Below, piece by piece: positions 1 through 57,772 of a DNA stretch of 64,000 nucleotides (its first letter is position 1; the number at the start of each line of letters is the position of its first letter). The stretch spans positions 32,001 through 96,000 of the IMG/VR virus record IMGVR_UViG_3300027777_000023; one strand, given 5' to 3'. The translations under genes and the position numbers were made by a program. This DNA comes from a virus. The notes beneath the pieces were generated by a model. That model had not been told where the DNA came from, searched no databases, and was given only the letters and a program-made list of their open reading frames with translations.

Positions 1-312
1 CATTGACTTCGCCCCTTCGGTTGAAGAAGCTGATGCAGTCCTCGCCACCTTCGGGTACGCGGACGCTGATGCGATCCTCGCTGCCTAAGGAGTGCCTGGA
101 ATTGATTGTCTGCTATTTTCCAGGGTAACACGCAGCAGACTGGTTTGTGGGAGTATTGAATCCTACTCCACATAACGAGATAATGGATAATCGAGAAGTC
201 GTAGCCTGCTTGTTGGCGCCGTCTTCTCTAAATAAAAATAACATAGCTAAACGTGTAGAGGTTTATAGTGAAGGCGTTCAGGACAGGGGTTCAACTCCCC
301 TCGGGTCCACCA
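1..312 (+). ncRNA. ssrA: tmRNA, 5' end outside window
   Basis: 3' end GGAC-AGGGG-TTCAACT-CCCCT-CGGGTCC-A-CCA gives T-arm, acceptor strand with the U of the G3:U70 alanine determinant, and encoded CCA (310-312); upstream reading frame ends in LAA-stop. Confidence 0.93.
2..88 (+). other. tmRNA tag reading frame (partial): IDFAPSVEEADAVLATFGYADADAILAA*
   Basis: Open frame ending in the typical degron LAA then TAA, about 220 nt upstream of the tmRNA 3' end; resume codon outside window. Confidence 0.85.
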
Positions 313-317
313 CTTTT

Positions 318-585
318 AGGGGTGAAGCTTAATGGTATAAGCAGGCGACTCATAAAAATTGTGCATTATAACGAGAAATCATATAATGAATGATGTCAAA
401 TTCGGTGAAACCTAAAACAGAAATGTTAAGGCAACGCCGAGCGAAGCCTCGAAAGAGGAACGTGTAGAGACTTGACGGCATCCTCCTAAGGCGCAAGCTA
501 AGGAGAAGACAAAGTCCAGGGAGTGAGGAAACTCACACAAACCTAAATCGCTCGACAGTGGGTTCGATCCCCATCACCCCTACCA
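318..585 (+). tRNA. trnI: tRNA-Ile2 (anticodon CAU, lysidine type), exons 318-353 and 546-585
   Basis: Acceptor AGGGGTG/CACCCCT-A-CCA; D-arm GCTT/AAGC; anticodon stem GGCGA/TCGCT with loop CTCAT|AA; T-arm GTGGG-TTCGATC-CCCAT; anticodon arm GCAGGCGACTCATAATCGCT matches the bacterial Ile2 type. Confidence 0.9.
354..545 (+). mobile_element. Group I intron (Azoarcus-like, IC3) at tRNA position 36/37, 192 nt, no ORF
   Basis: P1 CAT(351-353)/GTG(361-363) with U.G; P7 G-A-GACTT(467-473)/AAGTCC(512-517); P9 GTGAG-GAAA-CTCAC; P10 ATT(358-360)/AAT(546-548); core motifs GTCAAATTCGG and GCAACGCCGAGC. Confidence 0.92.
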
Positions 586-4988: not shown

Positions 4989-6130
4989 ACAATCGTGAAA
5001 CTATAGGCAACAGCTTTTATGCAAAGCCTGGAGACTCACATTCAAAGAGACTAGAGTATGTATACAACCATATTCATGGCGTTCTTCCAACAATGCTTAG
5101 TTTTTCTGATGAGTTCGAGATGACTTGTCTGGCACCTATTGAGGAAAACTTTGAATTGTTCTGCTCTACACTAAATAAAGTGGGAGACAGGCTATTAGAG
5201 GAAGGTGTATGGATAGGTAAAGACGATACAATATACGAGGGTATTTTCCTGAACATAGCCTATAAAACCCAAGATGGGCATAGATTATTCTACGACAATA
5301 CCATAATCATGCACGGAGGACCGGTACTATCAGACAAGGAAAAGGCTCTACAAGACCTTACTGTGGGTGTGCGTGTGGCATGTCGTGATAAAGAGCATAC
5401 AAAGGTAATCATCGACTTGCTTGAGCAGCATAAGCTTAAAGATAAGGCAAAGATATATATGCTCGCCAACAGTTATGGTGACCTAGCATTCACTGCGCTA
5501 CCCATGCCTGAGGTTTCTATGAATCTTGAGTTAAACTATGGGGAAAGTTTCCCAGAGCTGCATGAGAAGATTGTGAATAGTCTGAATAACGATAAGTCTG
5601 GCTTGTACCTATTCCATGGCCCTCCAGGCACAGGCAAGTCCTCTTATGTGAAGCATCTGTTGTCTGGTGAGGTAAAAAGAAAGATTGCCTATATCCCTGT
5701 GGGTATGATTAATCAGTTGGTAAGCCCAGACATGATTCCTCTGCTTATGGAAAACAAGGATATTATTCTTGTGATTGAAGATGCCGAGAAAGCATTATTG
5801 TCCAGAGAGACATCTGAGAACTCAGACGTTGTATCCACGATTCTGAATCTCACAGACGGCTTCATCGGTAATGCACTAAACATCAGTGTCGTCGCTACCT
5901 TTAACGTAGAAAAGGAAAAGCTCGATGCTGCGTTGTTGCGTAAGGGTAGATTGCGGCATAGCTATGAGTTCAAAAAGCTCACGGTAGAACAATCCAAACG
6001 TCTGGCAGAGTCCATTGGTGCAGACAGCAGCAAAGTAACAGAAGACAGTACACTAGCAGACATCTACAATATGGAAGTAGATACAGGCTACGTTGCACCT
6101 GTAGTGCGTCGGGTGGGCTTTGGGGCCTAG
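4976..6130 (+). CDS. AAA+ ATPase (single domain, N-terminal extension)
   Basis: Walker A GPPGTGKS, Walker B LVIEDAE, sensor TFN, SRH DAALLRKGR, C-terminal RRVGF tail. Confidence 0.9.
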   Translation: MHKLNNRETIGNSFYAKPGDSHSKRLEYVYNHIHGVLPTMLSFSDEFEMTCLAPIEENFELFCSTLNKVGDRLLEEGVWIGKDDTIYEGIFLNIAYKTQDGHRLFYDNTIIMHGGPVLSDKEKALQDLTVGVRVACRDKEHTKVIIDLLEQHKLKDKAKIYMLANSYGDLAFTALPMPEVSMNLELNYGESFPELHEKIVNSLNNDKSGLYLFHGPPGTGKSSYVKHLLSGEVKRKIAYIPVGMINQLVSPDMIPLLMENKDIILVIEDAEKALLSRETSENSDVVSTILNLTDGFIGNALNISVVATFNVEKEKLDAALLRKGRLRHSYEFKKLTVEQSKRLAESIGADSSKVTEDSTLADIYNMEVDTGYVAPVVRRVGFGA

Positions 6131-7851
6131 CCGTTAAGGAACATATCGTTCGACGACGAGCTTGGGCCGGTGAGACCAGCATCCCCAATAGCCATATATG
6201 CCGCGCATAGTGAAAATACAAGGCTGTGCATAGCATCATCTGGCTGTTTGGGGTGATGGTCGTAGACTAGTTCTTGACCATACAGACCGTCCCGGACTTC
6301 GATAAATACGTTCATAATGTCTTGCATATAGTCAGACACATCATCCCATTGTGGGAATAGTATTTTGCCTGCTTTAAGCTGGCGAATAACTAGTGATATA
6401 ACGTCTGATCTGTGCAGCACCCAGCGGTTCTGTCTCCAGTCGTATTTGCCCGAGTCAAAATACTGCACAACCTTACTGCGTCTATAGGCAGCTAATTGAG
6501 ATCTCTGAGGACTTGTGAGTTCACATAGCTTGATTCCTCGTATAGGGTCAGGACCTGAGTCACTAACACAAAAGGCACCTACACCATTAGCCCGGTCAGC
6601 AATGTCTCTGATGTGTGCCTCATGATCAAACCCTCGATATACTTTAGCGAAAAAAACCTCAAATACTCCATCAGAACGAACTGCCCCCATGGTCGCAACT
6701 GTACGAGATTGTGCCATACTAACCCCCCAGTCGACCCCCATAGTATAAACACGATAATCGCTTTTATTTTTATTTAAAATAGTTAAGTTGTTTTCGTTAC
6801 CAGCCTCAAATTGTGGACCTAGCACGCAGAGCTTAAGTAGCTCCTCTTTCGCGATTGGTTTTGATCCTATATCATATGTGAGGCCGAAAGTTTCATTCAT
6901 GATCACGCGCATCTCGTTTTTACCGCTATGCACCTTTTCATAGATTTCCTTCCATTCTTTGGGGTCTTCGTTGAAATGAGGCAACAAGGGTTGAGCAAGA
7001 TGATAGCCAGTTAACAAAGAATTGCTAGGATTCATACTCACCCATTCACCATCTCTAGAACTTATAATCTTACTACACTTACTGCAACTAAACCCGTGAG
7101 GCTGAATCATCTTTAATGGATCATTACCTTCCGTTAAAGAATTCCAATGATTGCATCCTGTGCACTTCATCATCCATTCAAGTTGATTGCTTGAGTTCCA
7201 TATTCTCTGAATTGTATTTGTAGAATCCAGTGGGGTTCCTGCAAATATTTCTCGTTTGTATGGACTCATCGCCATCGTTTCTTGAATGATCGGTATTTGA
7301 TCATATTCAATGTTTTGAATTTCGTCGTACACGACCTCATCAATAGCCGGACCACGAGTTCTTGTAGCATCATCACTTACATATCTAAACAACACACTAC
7401 TATGCGTATCATCCAAAATCTTTTCAAACACATCATTTTTAAACCATCCTTTTACCAACAAATTTTTAATCTTTGGGCTCTCAAACCTGGGAGGAATATA
7501 ATTACTTGAGAAATACTTAGTAGTTAGCTCCTGGGGCCCGACGTACATCATTTTAAAATAATTCCATCTAATCAAATTAAGACAAATAATGTTACTAATC
7601 AGTGTACTCTTTAGAGTTTTACGACTGCATTTAAGTAACAACTTCTGAGGCATATTATCATAAATATGCTTTAGCATCGGGAAAGCATCCAATTTTTGCA
7701 GCCGCCCTTCATTATCATACAAGTAGTTCTCGACAAAATGAGAGGGAGGCAGTACCGAGAAAATAAGCTGTCGAGCAAGAAACGCAGACTTCGGATTATT
7801 TTTCCGAAGCAGTTTCTCAATAGTGTCTGTAATTTTATTATGGGTAGTCAT
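6127..7851 (-). CDS. terL: Terminase large subunit (GpA-like ATPase plus RNase H-like nuclease)
   Basis: Walker A-like SRKTLKST, Walker B VVYDEIQ, GTP coupling motif, Zn-ribbon CTGC..CSKC, nuclease GVDWG and DDAMHS; ATG 7851 preferred over 7890. Confidence 0.88.
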   Translation of the reverse strand: MTTHNKITDTIEKLLRKNNPKSAFLARQLIFSVLPPSHFVENYLYDNEGRLQKLDAFPMLKHIYDNMPQKLLLKCSRKTLKSTLISNIICLNLIRWNYFKMMYVGPQELTTKYFSSNYIPPRFESPKIKNLLVKGWFKNDVFEKILDDTHSSVLFRYVSDDATRTRGPAIDEVVYDEIQNIEYDQIPIIQETMAMSPYKREIFAGTPLDSTNTIQRIWNSSNQLEWMMKCTGCNHWNSLTEGNDPLKMIQPHGFSCSKCSKIISSRDGEWVSMNPSNSLLTGYHLAQPLLPHFNEDPKEWKEIYEKVHSGKNEMRVIMNETFGLTYDIGSKPIAKEELLKLCVLGPQFEAGNENNLTILNKNKSDYRVYTMGVDWGVSMAQSRTVATMGAVRSDGVFEVFFAKVYRGFDHEAHIRDIADRANGVGAFCVSDSGPDPIRGIKLCELTSPQRSQLAAYRRSKVVQYFDSGKYDWRQNRWVLHRSDVISLVIRQLKAGKILFPQWDDVSDYMQDIMNVFIEVRDGLYGQELVYDHHPKQPDDAMHSLVFSLCAAYMAIGDAGLTGPSSSSNDMFLNG

Positions 7852-53400: not shown

Positions 53401-54528
53401 ATGAACCTACCAAAACTATACAAGCGTACCGTAACAAGAGCCATCCAAGAATGGCAGATCTTTTTCGCAGATGGCGAATACTATACTGTCAGTGGTCAAA
53501 CAGACGGTAAGAAAGTAACTAGCACCCCTACAGTCTGCAAAGGCAAGAACCTAGGCAAAAAGAACGAGACCACTAATGAGGAGCAGGCTGAGCTAGAGGC
53601 AAAGGCTAAGTGGCAGAAGAAAAAGGATGAAGGGTATATCGAAAACATCGAGGCCGTTGATGGTGCGATGGATTTTCGATTTAATCCCATGCTGGCAAAA
53701 GACTATGCAAACTACGAGGACAAGATCGCTTTTCCTGTATATAGTCAGCCTAAATTGGATGGTCTCAGATGCGTGATTACTAGGGAAGGCACGTTCAGCC
53801 GGCAGTGGAAGCCTTTCGTCACATTAGATTATGTGCAAGATGTCTTGCGAGCTGTGTTTGATCAAAACCCAGGATTGCTTGCATTTGACGGTGAGATGTA
53901 TTCTCACGAGCTCAAAGATCGCTTTGAGGAAATTGTGAGTATTGTAAAGCAGCCAAAGGCTACAGCTGAAGATCTGGAAAAGTGTAAAAACAATATTCAG
54001 TATCATGTGTACGACGCTGTGTTTGAGGAAGCCCATAGCTTTAGTGCGCGTATAAACGCAGTAACTATGCTACTGCGTGAATTGGACAGCCCATATATCA
54101 AGCTTGTGGAAACAGACCGCATCCGAAATCAAGACGATCTTGATGCGATGTATCAGCAGTATATGCAAGAAGGCTATGAGGGTCAAATGATTCGCACACC
54201 TCTGTCATTGTATCAGCATAATCGAACCAAAGATCTATTAAAGCGTAAGGATTTCCACGACGCTGAGTACGAGATCATAGGCTATAAAGAAGGCAAAGGC
54301 AGTCGTGAAGGCTGTATTATATTGCGGCTCGGTATGGCTGACGGCACTGAATTTGATTCTGTGCCTGTTGGCGGTGTAGAATATCTGCAAAGATTGTGGC
54401 TTCGTCGAGAAGACCTGCTGGGCTTGCGGGCAACTGTCAAGTACCAGAACCTCAGCAATGACGGCATTCCAAGGTTCAACAACACAGTAAAGATCAGAAA
54501 CCATAAACTAGAGGAAATGGTATTCTAA
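53401..54528 (+). CDS. lig: ATP-dependent DNA ligase
   Basis: PKLDGLRC, FDGE.Y, YHVYD, EG.MIR, LLK.K, OB domain PRF. Confidence 0.93.
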   Translation: MNLPKLYKRTVTRAIQEWQIFFADGEYYTVSGQTDGKKVTSTPTVCKGKNLGKKNETTNEEQAELEAKAKWQKKKDEGYIENIEAVDGAMDFRFNPMLAKDYANYEDKIAFPVYSQPKLDGLRCVITREGTFSRQWKPFVTLDYVQDVLRAVFDQNPGLLAFDGEMYSHELKDRFEEIVSIVKQPKATAEDLEKCKNNIQYHVYDAVFEEAHSFSARINAVTMLLRELDSPYIKLVETDRIRNQDDLDAMYQQYMQEGYEGQMIRTPLSLYQHNRTKDLLKRKDFHDAEYEIIGYKEGKGSREGCIILRLGMADGTEFDSVPVGGVEYLQRLWLRREDLLGLRATVKYQNLSNDGIPRFNNTVKIRNHKLEEMVF

Positions 54529-54803
54529 TGAAAACATTAAGAGACAAGATAGATGACTGGGTAGATGAATTCTATCCAGATAACACTATATTAATTGCTG
54601 ACGGATTCGAAGAAGCTTTCGTGGGCGTAGCTGTCCAATTCAATACGCCAATAGCAATATTTGACAGACAAAAGTGTATCAAAATACTTATGCAAGATAT
54701 GAGTGAAGATGAAGCGTATGAGTATTTTGAGTTCAACGTTAGTGGAGCATATGTTGGTGAAAACACACCAGCATTCATAGAGTTCTTTCCCAATGAATCT
54801 TAG
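54528..54803 (+). CDS. Phage hypothetical protein
   Basis: ADG..EA..G..EA.EY..FN..GAYVGE.TP. Confidence 0.7.
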   Translation: MKTLRDKIDDWVDEFYPDNTILIADGFEEAFVGVAVQFNTPIAIFDRQKCIKILMQDMSEDEAYEYFEFNVSGAYVGENTPAFIEFFPNES

Positions 54804-55050
54804 AATATTCTTCGTCATAGCCGAATACTCTGATAAGGTGTTCGGTGTCGTAGCTCAAAACAACACATTGCTATATTCAAAGCAGGTGCATGATCGCTAC
54901 GACTTTGCTGACGGCATCAAAGCTGTAAGATCCGTAGAGTCTGAGGAGAGTATTATACATCAAGCGTTCTGCAAAAAATATCCAGAACTAGCTAGTCAAC
55001 TGATTGATAAGCATCCAGAAATAGCAAAAACCAAACAAACAAACCAATAA
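54793..55050 (+). CDS. Hypothetical protein
   Basis: Abutting. Confidence 0.55.
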   Translation: MNLRIFFVIAEYSDKVFGVVAQNNTLLYSKQVHDRYDFADGIKAVRSVESEESIIHQAFCKKYPELASQLIDKHPEIAKTKQTNQ

Positions 55051-55054
55051 AACT

Positions 55055-55366
55055 ATGAAAAAAGTTACACTTGAGCAAGCGCACGAATTACTAGAAAATA
55101 CTTCCGCAGTTATCTGGGGAGAAGAAGGCAACCTATCATATCCTCTTGTCAATGATCTTGAAGGAGACGAAGATAATTGCTTTTTTGAATTAATCCTGGA
55201 CGATGAAGAGATGCGGTTTAATGAAGGAGATAATCAAACAGTCGTACTAGACGGATTTAGTATGGTACTTGTTGATGAGTATGGTGAAAATCAGTCAATC
55301 ACTTTGCTTGTACCTATGGACGTAGAAGATCCTTTTGTAGAAAAATTGAATGACGAAGAAGAATAA
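55055..55366 (+). CDS. Acidic hypothetical protein
   Basis: Abutting. Confidence 0.6.
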   Translation: MKKVTLEQAHELLENTSAVIWGEEGNLSYPLVNDLEGDEDNCFFELILDDEEMRFNEGDNQTVVLDGFSMVLVDEYGENQSITLLVPMDVEDPFVEKLNDEEE

Positions 55367-55445
55367 TCTTAAAGTGTCAGTATGATTTTGTTAAGGTTTT
55401 AAAAAAATACGAAGAAAAATTTCTAAAATATAGAAAGGAGTGACC

Positions 55446-56339
55446 ATGAAAAAGAATCAAATTAAAGAGCCCAATACAAATAATAAAATTATTGTTTGTC
55501 GCGGGCTCCCGTGACCGGCTAGCGGAAAATCGACATGGGCCAAAGACTTTATTGACCGTAATCCTGGGTGGTTGCGAGTCAACAAAGACGATCTCAGGGC
55601 AATGCTTCACAACAGTAAGTGGAGCAAAGATAATGAAAAGCAGGTATTGCTTGTGCGTGACAGCATGATTATCGGAGCATTGAGTAGAGGGTATGGTGTG
55701 ATTGTTGATGATACGAATTTCGCTAGTCAGCACATCACAAATATTCAACTTATTGCTGAGGATTATAAAGCAGACTTTGAGGTAAAAGACTTTGATGTCT
55801 CGCTTGAAGAATGCTTGAAGCGTAATAGTGAGCGAATGCCTAGGGTCCCGGATCGAGTGATCCTAGATATGTATAATAAATATGTGTTGCCTAACAAACC
55901 TAAAGTCAAAAATAATAAAGATCTACCACCGTGTATTGTATGTGATCTTGACGGCACGCTCGCAATTCATGTAGATCGTGGTCCGTTCGAGTTTGAGAAA
56001 TGCTACTCTGACGAGGTAAATGAGAGTGTGCTGGGCTGTATAGACGCAATGACTAAACGAGGATTCAAGCTAATCTTCGTTAGTGGACGTCCAGATAGCT
56101 GTCGAGACGAGACAGTGCGTTGGTTGAATGATAAGTGTTGGCTCGGTTCTGGATACATATTGTACATGCGAGCTACAGGCGACAACAGAAAAGATAGCAT
56201 AGTGAAGGAGGAGATTTATAAAAATGATATTCTTCCTGAATACTATGTAGAGTTTGTGCTAGACGACAGGCAACAGGTCGTCGATGCATTGCGGGAAATG
56301 GGATTACAAGTATGGCAAGTTGCACGCGGAGATTTTTAA
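55446..56339 (+). CDS. pseT: PseT-like 5' polynucleotide kinase/3' phosphatase with an in-frame TGA (55512-55514) in the P-loop; recoded or pseudogene
   Basis: AAGGAG SD then ATG 55446; RGLP*PASGKSTW, NKDDLR, DDTN; HAD domain DLDGT, SGR, DDR intact. Confidence 0.8.
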
Positions 56340-56342
56340 AAC

Positions 56343-56627
56343 ATGAATAAATTTACAACAGAACAAATTGAAAAAATTAAAGAAGTGCATACGGAAATAG
56401 CTGACTTGCAAAAAACGCAAGATAAGCTATTTGATCGACTGATAAAAGATTTAGAGTTCGAAGACTATGCTGAAGCATGGCAAAACGACGCTGATTGCTA
56501 TATATTCAAGGACGATAACCCTGCAAACTGGTTGTTTGACACAATATTCAATACTGCCTTTGACGAGCTATGTGACTCGATTAAAAGCATTGAAGAGCAT
56601 TGGGGTATGTACAATCAACGAGATTAG
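56343..56627 (+). CDS. Hypothetical protein
   Basis: Abutting. Confidence 0.6.
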   Translation: MNKFTTEQIEKIKEVHTEIADLQKTQDKLFDRLIKDLEFEDYAEAWQNDADCYIFKDDNPANWLFDTIFNTAFDELCDSIKSIEEHWGMYNQRD

Positions 56628-56635
56628 ATATGACT

Positions 56636-56671
56636 GGTTGCTGCGGTTCCTTCAATAGGGGCCGCAGCACC
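56636..56671 (+). promoter_or_regulatory. GC-rich hairpin 12 nt upstream of the Rnl1 start, no U-tract
   Basis: TGCTGCGGTTCC/GGGGCCGCAGCA. Confidence 0.45.
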
Positions 56672-56683
56672 AACAACAACCCT

Positions 56684-57772
56684 ATGAAACAATTCATGTA
56701 CTTACTCGACAATGGTTTCGTCGTGAGGGAAAGAGAGATAGGTGGTGAGATGTGCTATCTTGTATTTCCATCTTCTTTGGGTGTTAAATGGACCAAGAAT
56801 AATTTGATATACAGAAGCAGTATCTGGACCGCAGATATGAAACCTGTGTCGCTGGGGTTCAAGAAATTCTTTAATTTTGGGGAAGCGCCTGAACTTGTGA
56901 GAGACCCTCGAAGCAGCGATATCTTGCTTGGTGGATCTGTGGTAGAAAAGATCGACGGTTCTTGTCTCATTGTGAGTAGGTTTAAGGGGCAGTTAATCTG
57001 TAGGACCAGAGGCACCTTTGATGCTAGGGAAAAACCTACAGGAAATGAGTTAGACTATCTGGAAAAGAAATATCCAAAAGCTTTCCAAAACGATGACCTG
57101 GCGAGTGAGCAATGCAGTTACGTATACGAGTGGACGACTAGTGCAAATCGTATTGTTGTGGATTATGGAGAGGAGCCAAACATACGATTAATTGCTAGAA
57201 TCTCCCATGAAGACTATCGCTACTCTTATCAGACCGTCCTGGATGGGATAGCTCAGGATATTGCTGTAAGTAGGCCGTACAGGTTGCTCGCTCCTGGTGT
57301 GAGTATGATAAAGACTCAACTAGAAAAGATGCGTCTCAGTGAAGGATACTGTGTGTACTTCAACGATGATCAGGACATCAAGAAAATGAAATGCGACTGG
57401 TATCTGAAAGCTCACAGATTCAGGAGCAACTGTTCATTACCATACATACTAGATTTATTTCTAGAGCAAGATTGTCCAGATATAACCTCATTTGTCGAAG
57501 CGCTTGAAAAAGAGTATGACTTTGAATGCGCTCCTGAAGTCAGGTCGTACGCATCGTCGGTATGTAGAGCCTATGCAGATGTGCAGGTACTCATACTCAG
57601 AGTCAAAGACTTCACAGGCACACTAGACGGCAAAAACAACAGAAAAGCTGCAGCAGAGGCTATATTAGCAGAATACAAGGACTCAGGATTGACAGGGGTA
57701 GCGTTTAATTGCTTGGACGGAAGACAAACAACAAAACATCAACTCAAACAATTGATACTTCAACAACTATGA
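56684..57772 (+). CDS. rnlA: T4 Rnl1-like RNA ligase
   Basis: GFKKFFN.GE, EKIDGS, YEW, EGY..Y, K.K..WY..AH. Confidence 0.8.
   Translation: MKQFMYLLDNGFVVREREIGGEMCYLVFPSSLGVKWTKNNLIYRSSIWTADMKPVSLGFKKFFNFGEAPELVRDPRSSDILLGGSVVEKIDGSCLIVSRFKGQLICRTRGTFDAREKPTGNELDYLEKKYPKAFQNDDLASEQCSYVYEWTTSANRIVVDYGEEPNIRLIARISHEDYRYSYQTVLDGIAQDIAVSRPYRLLAPGVSMIKTQLEKMRLSEGYCVYFNDDQDIKKMKCDWYLKAHRFRSNCSLPYILDLFLEQDCPDITSFVEALEKEYDFECAPEVRSYASSVCRAYADVQVLILRVKDFTGTLDGKNNRKAAAEAILAEYKDSGLTGVAFNCLDGRQTTKHQLKQLILQQL

Follow-up and report, generated by a model that had tools for sequence, protein, structure and literature searches.

The stretch of viral DNA analysed here, a 64,000-nucleotide part of the 189.6-kb IMG/VR virus record IMGVR_UViG_3300027777_000023 of a lake phage (hereafter the window), carries a gene for a polynucleotide kinase-phosphatase, pnk, whose Walker A motif (P-loop) is interrupted by a stop codon set between two proline codons. 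The genes of the window are densely packed on the plus strand, to which all coordinates below refer, and follow the standard genetic code. The pnk ATG (55446-55448) is preceded by an AAGGAG Shine-Dalgarno sequence (55435-55440), and the frame which it opens reads MKKNQIKEPNTNNKIIVCRGLP before reaching CCG (55509-55511), TGA (55512-55514) and again CCG (55515-55517), directly 3' of which lie the codons GCT AGC GGA AAA TCG ACA for ASGKST. The 5' part of this frame (55446-55511) comprises 22 codons that specify an N-terminal extension, strand beta-1 (KIIVC) and the residues R-G-L-P, the last of these codons being the putative take-off codon. It is followed by six extra bases (55512-55517), namely the TGA stop and the putative landing codon CCG, and then by the rest of pnk (55518-56339), which restarts at GCT for the Ala of GLPASGKST and stays open for 274 codons, through the kinase and HAD phosphatase domains, up to a TAA at 56337-56339.

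Pfam searches with the part downstream of the insert matched AAA_33 (3e-17) and HAD_PNKP (2e-46), while HMMER aligned the protein end to end with T4 Pnk (1LTQ; E 2e-45), the T4 protein requiring a two-residue gap exactly at the P-loop. The product has the architecture of a T4-type Pnk (PseT), that is, an N-terminal P-loop kinase and a C-terminal HAD phosphatase, and DLDGT is present. Its Walker A motif is canonical only when the six bases are skipped and, with a stop placed between two codons readable by one tRNA, CCG-TGA-CCG (55509-55517) has the layout of a stop-hop. The genome contains no second pnk copy and no repeat of the cassette, the gene in the window being its sole pnk. These features agree with an earlier reading made from the letters alone (hereafter the sequence-only reading), which had recognised the frame KIIVCRGLP-stop-PASGKSTW from ATG 55446 behind AAGGAG, the six nucleotides (TGA CCG) that are extra relative to canonical GLPASGKST, here substantiated by insert-free relatives and homologues, and about 275 intact downstream codons including the phosphatase.

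The nuclease cassette at the start of pnk

Looked for in related phages, as the sequence-only reading had advised, the six nucleotides were found in two contigs (L009 and L010) and not in four other close relatives (L001, L002, L003 and L011). The two carriers share an identical CCGTGACCG; they come from other metagenome assemblies and represent separate genotypes, which elsewhere diverge from the window by 5% and 11%, respectively, and which differ from each other in the phosphatase half. The four relatives without the insert read RGLPASGKST and have amino-acid identities to the window Pnk of 96% (L001 and L002), 97% (L011) and 75% (L003). Approximately 200 homologues likewise lack the six bases; their Walker A motif is GLP[AG]SGK[ST]T throughout, and a two-residue insert in the P-loop is absent among them.

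The insert is heritable and not an assembly artefact, because the same CCG-TGA-CCG occurs in two contigs of other assemblies that have diverged by 5-11% elsewhere. An assembly or sequencing error, which the sequence-only reading had listed as an alternative and to which the origin of the window as a metagenome-assembled contig might lend itself, is therefore hardly credible, all the more so as a public protein collection holds at least five distinct calls of 245 amino acids (aa) that begin at an internal Met (P0132, P0122, P0123, P0129 and P0136). The public gene call for the window Pnk likewise starts at this Met. To judge from these 245-aa gene calls, from which alone a stop is presumed in the contigs of P0122, P0123 and P0136, about a fifth of the clade's contigs may carry the break. 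No relative with the substitute N-terminus but without the stop was found, and the phage collection gave no DNA match.

The undisturbed state is seen in L011, where pnk begins with ATGACGAAG and overlaps the end of the upstream gene. In the window this original start has been displaced to 55350-55375, where ATGACGAAGAAGAATAATCTTAAAGT encodes MTKKNNLKV, is cut off from the gene and runs into a stop; its 26 nt are identical to the intact gene start in L011 (protein P0134, MTKKNNLKVMFLRGLPASGKST). The next 14 nt (55376-55389) lie between the old gene start and a nuclease remnant and have no counterpart in L011, L001 or L009; we take this filler to be the deletion joint left by loss of a nuclease gene. 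The remnant itself (54 nt, 55390-55443) consists of the last 17 codons and the TGA of such a gene, holds the AAGGAG, and aligns with one mismatch to L009:829-882, which is the end of a 290-aa open reading frame (ORF; L009:10-882) finishing in KFLKKYEEKFLKYRKE and the stop. The substitute 5' end of pnk that follows, all 22 codons, is the same in L009 and L010, and its DNA matches the corresponding codons of L001 at only approximately 59% identity, a value that rises to 89% downstream. In L009 a mere 2 nt separate the nuclease TGA from the pnk ATG, and the last codons of the nuclease gene contain the AAGGAG, so the strong Shine-Dalgarno sequence of the window is part of a cassette whose nuclease gene was deleted. 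The sequence-only reading was thus right in noting this Shine-Dalgarno sequence, and missed that both it and the new N-terminus belong to a homing-endonuclease-type cassette; its suggestion that the insert is the footprint of an excised element gains substance from the remnant of this cassette, which it had not seen.

The ORF L009:10-882 has pairs of CxxC (zinc-finger-like), a weak match to NUMOD3 and a match to Pfam Tn7_TnsA-like_N (PF08722; E 7.7e-7, above the Pfam cut-off), which is of the PD-(D/E)xK type. Its family comprises more than 1300 clusters at 50% identity, in which E160, D200 and K212 are invariant; NUMOD3 and PF08722 are on record for most of the homologues, and members are frequent in phage contigs, at times with two copies per genome. 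In its sequence, the L009 nuclease has the features of a free-standing homing endonuclease. Its presence is sporadic, being complete in L009 and reduced to 54 nt in the window, with no copy in the rest of the genome or in L001, L002, L003 and L011, and tblastn of the nuclease against phages and the PDB gave no matches. A second nuclease (P0223) is 80% identical with the same C-terminus; it and the truncated Pnk call P0136 have matching contig statistics (6151 nt, 2 contigs), a hint of an earlier and by now divergent version of this cassette. In a scan that required identical codons, the surroundings of 80 further nuclease genes of this family showed matched-codon stops at chance level, and the five candidates that were checked are not interrupted genes.

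A tract of 223 nt (55390-55612) is near-identical in the window, L009 and L010, which differ there at 55396 and 55523 only, the latter being a synonymous difference in the P-loop Ser codon. Downstream of approximately 55612, site patterns group the window with L011, and L009 and L010 with L001. The tract may be read as a co-conversion tract set in two different backgrounds, as would be expected around a homing site. Since the three copies are near-identical within the cassette, the allele is young. Among the three stop-bearing copies of pnk dN/dS is 0.02-0.03, a value which is uninformative on the function of the allele because the downstream differences were imported by recombination with intact alleles, and which reflects selection in those intact alleles.

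Two further polymorphisms were noted nearby. Contig L010 begins at the exact first base of the nuclease remnant (GTTAAG...), as would be expected if the assembly graph broke where the population is polymorphic for the junction. A short way upstream of the pnk region, an 85-aa ORF without assigned function (54793-55050) occurs in the window and L011 and not in L001 or L002, an insertion-deletion polymorphism.

Pro-stop-Pro Walker A breaks in other phage genes

A scan of IMG/VR for G-x-P-[TRR]-P-[GA]-S-G-K-[ST]-T returned 56 loci, and in all of them the middle codon is a stop (TGA in 32, TAA in 14, TAG in 10), TGG being found in none. At each locus a short frame (11-67 codons) precedes the stop and a long ORF continues in frame behind it. 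When any codon was allowed between the two Pro codons, 63 loci were obtained, with a stop in 55 and a sense codon in eight; the latter are chance matches in frames that do not encode NTPases. Among genuine P-loop genes with an extra codon and Pro at this position, the codon is therefore a stop in 55 of 55 and a sense codon in none, against a chance expectation set by three stops among 64 codons. That a sense codon never occupies the position of the stop argues against read-through and for skipping.

The class is made up of small AAA_33 kinases (34), UvrD-like helicases (13, one of which also has an intein) and AAA_33(+HD) proteins (5), and includes a second true PNK (L123), which is 32% identical to the window Pnk and reads GPP-TAA-PASGKSTWA. 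It falls into 35 clusters at 90% identity and 14 at 60%, all three stops being used within each family. Pairs of stop-bearing genes have reached synonymous saturation (pS 0.6-0.9) at 31-77% amino-acid identity, and their dN/dS, where measurable, is 0.08-0.35, indicative of purifying selection. With lengths of 10-38 codons, the mini-frames upstream begin with Met and supply strand beta-1 and G-x-P of the family concerned, and in 21 of the 56 loci the same nuclease family is encoded approximately 100 nt upstream. Both flanking codons are CCN throughout, as the search was designed to find, and CCC was never seen. Take-off and landing codons are identical in the window and in only 14 of the 56 loci, a proportion at chance level, so the matched Pro codons on which the sequence-only reading had insisted are no general feature of the class, and a hop would need a tRNA(Pro) able to read several CCN codons. 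Retention of the stop while the neighbouring third positions randomise, in genes that remain open and constrained, is the comparative signature of recoding.

Two members of the class were set apart by additional elements. A UvrD-like helicase of 962 codons (L134:2385-5270, minus strand) contains both a CCT-TGA-CCA Walker A break and an intein-like insert (Pfam Intein_splicing, below the cut-off), and so has two different selfish-element solutions in a single gene. At a small-kinase locus without a TnsA-like nuclease (L115), a minus-strand ORF at 5536-6354, some 0.7-1.5 kb upstream of the stop, has a GIY-YIG-like start (...KSYIGY...), a sign that nucleases of other types may also go with such a break.

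Folding of the RNA around the break predicts a hairpin of 7 bp (55498-55515; GUCGCGG-GCUC-CCGUGAC), the 3' arm of which consists of take-off codon and stop plus the initial base of the landing codon. This is the minimum-energy fold, and takes the place of the hairpin put forward in the sequence-only reading, CCG-UGAC-CGG with the stop in its loop; it is one of two GC-rich hairpins with 7 bp and a 4-nt loop within the window. The same geometry is found in stop-bearing small kinases (GUUAGGG...CCUUGAC), while in the helicases of the class a hairpin of 11 bp reaches as far as the Gly codon. Many of the kinases carry AGGGGGG 2-3 nt 5' of the take-off codon, where the window has only GCGGGC. No nascent-peptide motif is shared, the chain being 22 residues long in the window and 10-38 in the class, and Rfam gave no match at 55300-55700.

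Genome-wide, TGA behaves as an ordinary stop, ending 18 of 100 long plus-strand frames as well as the L009 nuclease gene; an alternative genetic code was considered and rejected, since TGA ends many genes here. The 189.6-kb genome encodes tRNAs for Thr, Arg and Gly only, together with a transfer-messenger RNA (tmRNA), and no suppressor tRNA. Arrangements of codon, stop and same codon, the genome-wide occurrence of which the sequence-only reading had proposed to check, were not enriched (6/277 and 8/465), and a scan of the genome for start-less long frames behind short ORFs gave no other clear case.

The genes neighbouring pnk encode an ATP-dependent DNA ligase (53401-54528) and an Rnl1-type RNA ligase (56600-57772), and both are intact; a genome with the pnk break thus still possesses, in the latter, the partner of Pnk in RNA repair. 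At the opposite end of the window, the phage tmRNA (window 1-312; genome 31899-32312; L109 200-613) matched Rfam RF00023 over all 374 model positions (156 bits, E 2e-63) and was also called by ARAGORN, its 5' end lying approximately 100 nt before the window. Directly after it (window 329-490; L109 630-791) there is a sub-threshold match to group I introns (RF00028; 41 bits against a gathering threshold of 50, E 6e-9).

Hopping weighed against other explanations

With the anatomy of the cassette, its occurrence in three genotypes and not in close relatives, its mosaic flanks and the recurrence of Pro-stop-Pro in 55 other phage P-loop genes established, we consider it likely that the locus is best explained as a short natural counterpart of the T4 gene 60/MobA cassette, on which ribosomes would hop from Pro codon to Pro codon. 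We also favour, with slightly more reserve, the wider proposal that Pro-stop-Pro breaks of Walker A motifs are widespread one-codon hops, which would make them the first stop-hops to be recognised in nature, that TnsA-like/NUMOD3 homing endonucleases have brought them into phage kinases, PNKs and UvrD-like helicases, that the stop, with an upstream hairpin or Shine-Dalgarno-like run, acts as a programmed signal, and that the window pnk is a decayed member which has lost the nuclease and kept the hop. A hop that rebuilds GLPASGKST had been put forward in the sequence-only reading and emerges from testing as the best-supported proposal; its support comes from the class comparison (55/55 stops, four protein families) and is comparative rather than biochemical. 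The tuning of kinase output that was envisaged there as well would be a conjectural consequence.

The events at the locus may be pictured as follows. A homing-endonuclease-type cassette would have invaded the 5' end of pnk, the TGA-CCG insert being its right-hand end. In its complete form, represented by L009, the cassette runs from the nuclease gene, through a Shine-Dalgarno sequence in the last codons of that gene, the ATG and 22 codons up to G-L-P, to the stop and Pro codon within the Walker A motif; in the window the nuclease gene was later deleted save for its last 54 nt, whereas both substitute start and insert were kept. The six extra base pairs probably disrupt the target of the nuclease, which would be the conserved Walker A DNA, and the carrier would then be safe from its own nuclease, in the way that the 50-nt gap of T4 gene 60 protects against MobA. 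Ribosomes that initiate at ATG 55446 would halt once peptidyl-tRNA(Pro) occupies CCG and the A site holds UGA. In a +6 hop, the peptidyl-tRNA(Pro) would unpair from the first CCN and re-pair on the next, whereupon decoding would resume with G-x-P-[GA]-S-G-K restored. Likely helpers of such a hop would be the local hairpin and the UGA itself, which, standing between Pro and a C, would act as a slow stop; in other families a G-rich Shine-Dalgarno-like run 2-3 nt before the take-off codon would be a further candidate stimulator.

Several observations weigh against hopping. On most hosts T4 can do without Pnk, and a null allele could be carried along by a driving nuclease. Matched codons, which would be expected for re-pairing of the tRNA, are not enriched in the class. 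The fold of 71 nt around the break is overall not significant (z -0.33), and the hairpin is not universal in the class, as its geometry varies by family and several kinases are without it. Selection is not demonstrable from this pnk allele alone, given that the allele is young and its downstream part recombinant, so that at the level of this single allele the evidence is weak. Finally, since the class spreads by homing, its stop-bearing alleles may each be young, and their downstream frames may have been shaped earlier in stop-free alleles.

From the evidence of the window alone, a null allele driven by a selfish element is a serious rival. The insert would then kill the kinase or the whole protein and would persist because the cassette homes and because only hosts with anticodon nucleases make Pnk necessary; hopping or read-through, if it occurred, would be noise. 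The two differences in 223 nt among the three copies indicate a young allele, recombination has refreshed the downstream part so that intact frames prove little, the insert is missing from close relatives, and synthetic stop-hops operate at a low level (bioRxiv 10.1101/2024.12.09.627546), a fact which also counts against hopping. Such an allele leaves unexplained, however, why all 55 genuine cases have a stop at this codon, each of the three stops being in use and the third positions of the Pro codons randomised, and why the broken UvrD-like helicases and kinases are still open and constrained at synonymous saturation. It also sits poorly with retention of both the insert and an intact gene in the window after the nuclease was lost, and with truncated 245-aa calls in roughly a fifth of the clade's contigs, and we regard it on the whole as rather unlikely. 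A product confined to the phosphatase is a good deal less probable. In this case translation would end at the TGA and a shorter protein, with HAD and without a working kinase, would start from ATG 55602 (245 aa) or TTG 55572 (255 aa). ATG 55602 is indeed the start chosen in public gene calls, in the window as well as in four or more further variants, the HAD domain is complete, and PDB 5UJ0, a 145-residue chain named polynucleotide kinase, aligns with this part only, so the phosphatase domain may fold alone. Neither start is preceded by a convincing Shine-Dalgarno sequence, however; the kinase domain of the product would lack beta-1, the P-loop and helix 1, and the conservation of an in-frame substitute N-terminus ending in G-x-P, in the window and 55 other genes, would be left without explanation. 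Such a product and hopping could nevertheless coexist.

Decoding of the UGA by a near-cognate or suppressor tRNA would yield GLP-X-PASGKST with two extra residues. It would require no special signal, and in E. coli a C behind UGA makes for weak termination. The genome is, however, without a suppressor tRNA, and the two extra residues are found in none of the approximately 200 homologues, in keeping with the claim of the sequence-only reading that read-through breaks the motif. If the longer loop worked, sense codons including TGG would be expected in genuine IMG/VR P-loop genes, and there are none; UAA and UAG, which are less readily read through, are moreover as common in the class as expected. 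Read-through is thus very improbable.

Relation to known recoding systems

The pnk case would be a new and minimal form of a known kind of recoding, represented by homing-endonuclease-linked bypass and by synthetic stop-hops. T4 gene 60 combines a stop behind the take-off codon with structured mRNA and a homing endonuclease (bioRxiv 10.1101/2022.08.31.505936), and the gap travels with the endonuclease, protects against it and outlasts its loss (Manning and Atkins, bioRxiv 10.1101/2022.08.31.505936, citing Bonocora et al. 2011). As in T4 gene 60/MobA, a nuclease gene at pnk stands beside the gene of a conserved enzyme, the cassette adds a substitute N-terminal segment, the non-coding insert opens with a stop after the take-off codon and leads to a landing codon for the same amino acid, the flanks appear co-converted and the insert is kept after loss of the endonuclease. 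The gap, however, measures 6 nt rather than 50 and has no room for an A-site or 3' stem-loop, a Shine-Dalgarno sequence within the gap or a barrier to forward slippage. Whereas the take-off codon of gene 60 lies in the 5' arm of the A-site stem-loop, the hairpin predicted for pnk is 5' of the stop, with take-off codon and stop in its 3' arm, and the nascent chain has only 22 residues; the gene 60 signal (KKYK...) acts approximately 14-30 residues from the P site. The nuclease is TnsA-like PD-(D/E)xK with NUMOD3 where MobA is HNH, the target is a Walker A motif and not Toprim, and the gene is not split. No homology of the pnk cassette to the gene 60 cassette or MobA was found; host gene and nuclease both differ.

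Synthetic stop-hops were described in E. coli by Weiss et al. 1987, as far as the summary in PMC5009743 extends, and of natural stop-hops the same review states that 'no occurrences are known' (PMC5009743). The literature consulted reports neither a natural stop-hop nor a Walker A break of this kind. The pnk arrangement shares with the synthetic constructs a stop flanked by codons for one tRNA, so that 9 nt would specify one amino acid and the product would be two residues shorter than that of read-through; unlike these engineered, low-level cases, it is natural, recurrent and located in a catalytic motif. The gene for release factor 2, prfB, employs a programmed +1 frameshift at a P-site codon followed by UGA C. 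The same order of P-site codon and UGA C is present in pnk, and many class members carry, as prfB does, a G-rich Shine-Dalgarno-like run (AGGGGGG in the class) 2-3 nt 5' of the take-off codon; the shift in the class would be +6, however, instead of +1 onto an overlapping codon, and the window has only GCGGGC upstream.

Further parallels are provided by elements that are tolerated in or beside conserved genes. MobE, a free-standing homing endonuclease in nrdA of phage Aeh1, inserts into the gene and adds new termini, according to the outline given in bioRxiv 10.1101/2022.08.31.505936. Here too a selfish nuclease lies in or beside a conserved gene and the added sequence keeps that gene usable; nrdA, however, is split into two associating proteins, whereas the second part of pnk has no start codon. 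The byp elements of Magnusiomyces capitatus mitochondria and the terminase bypass of Streptomyces phage Hau3 are likewise natural short inserts that are skipped at a poorly decoded A-site codon (PMC5009743; PMC10732093). They differ from the pnk insert in being 27-55 nt long or out of frame, in relying on unused or rare sense codons and in having no tie to a nuclease gene or a Walker A motif.

Translational bypass has a single well-studied phage example, T4 gene 60, and the pnk allele together with its 55 look-alike genes constitutes a compact natural candidate for a one-codon stop-hop. If the hop is true, ribosomes would be programmable to skip a stop with very little sequence, and gene callers would mis-annotate such genes, the window Pnk being itself on record as a 245-aa fragment. 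Many phage genes annotated as truncated or as pseudogenes would then actually be whole, and selfish nucleases would have gained a general route into catalytic motifs without killing the gene.

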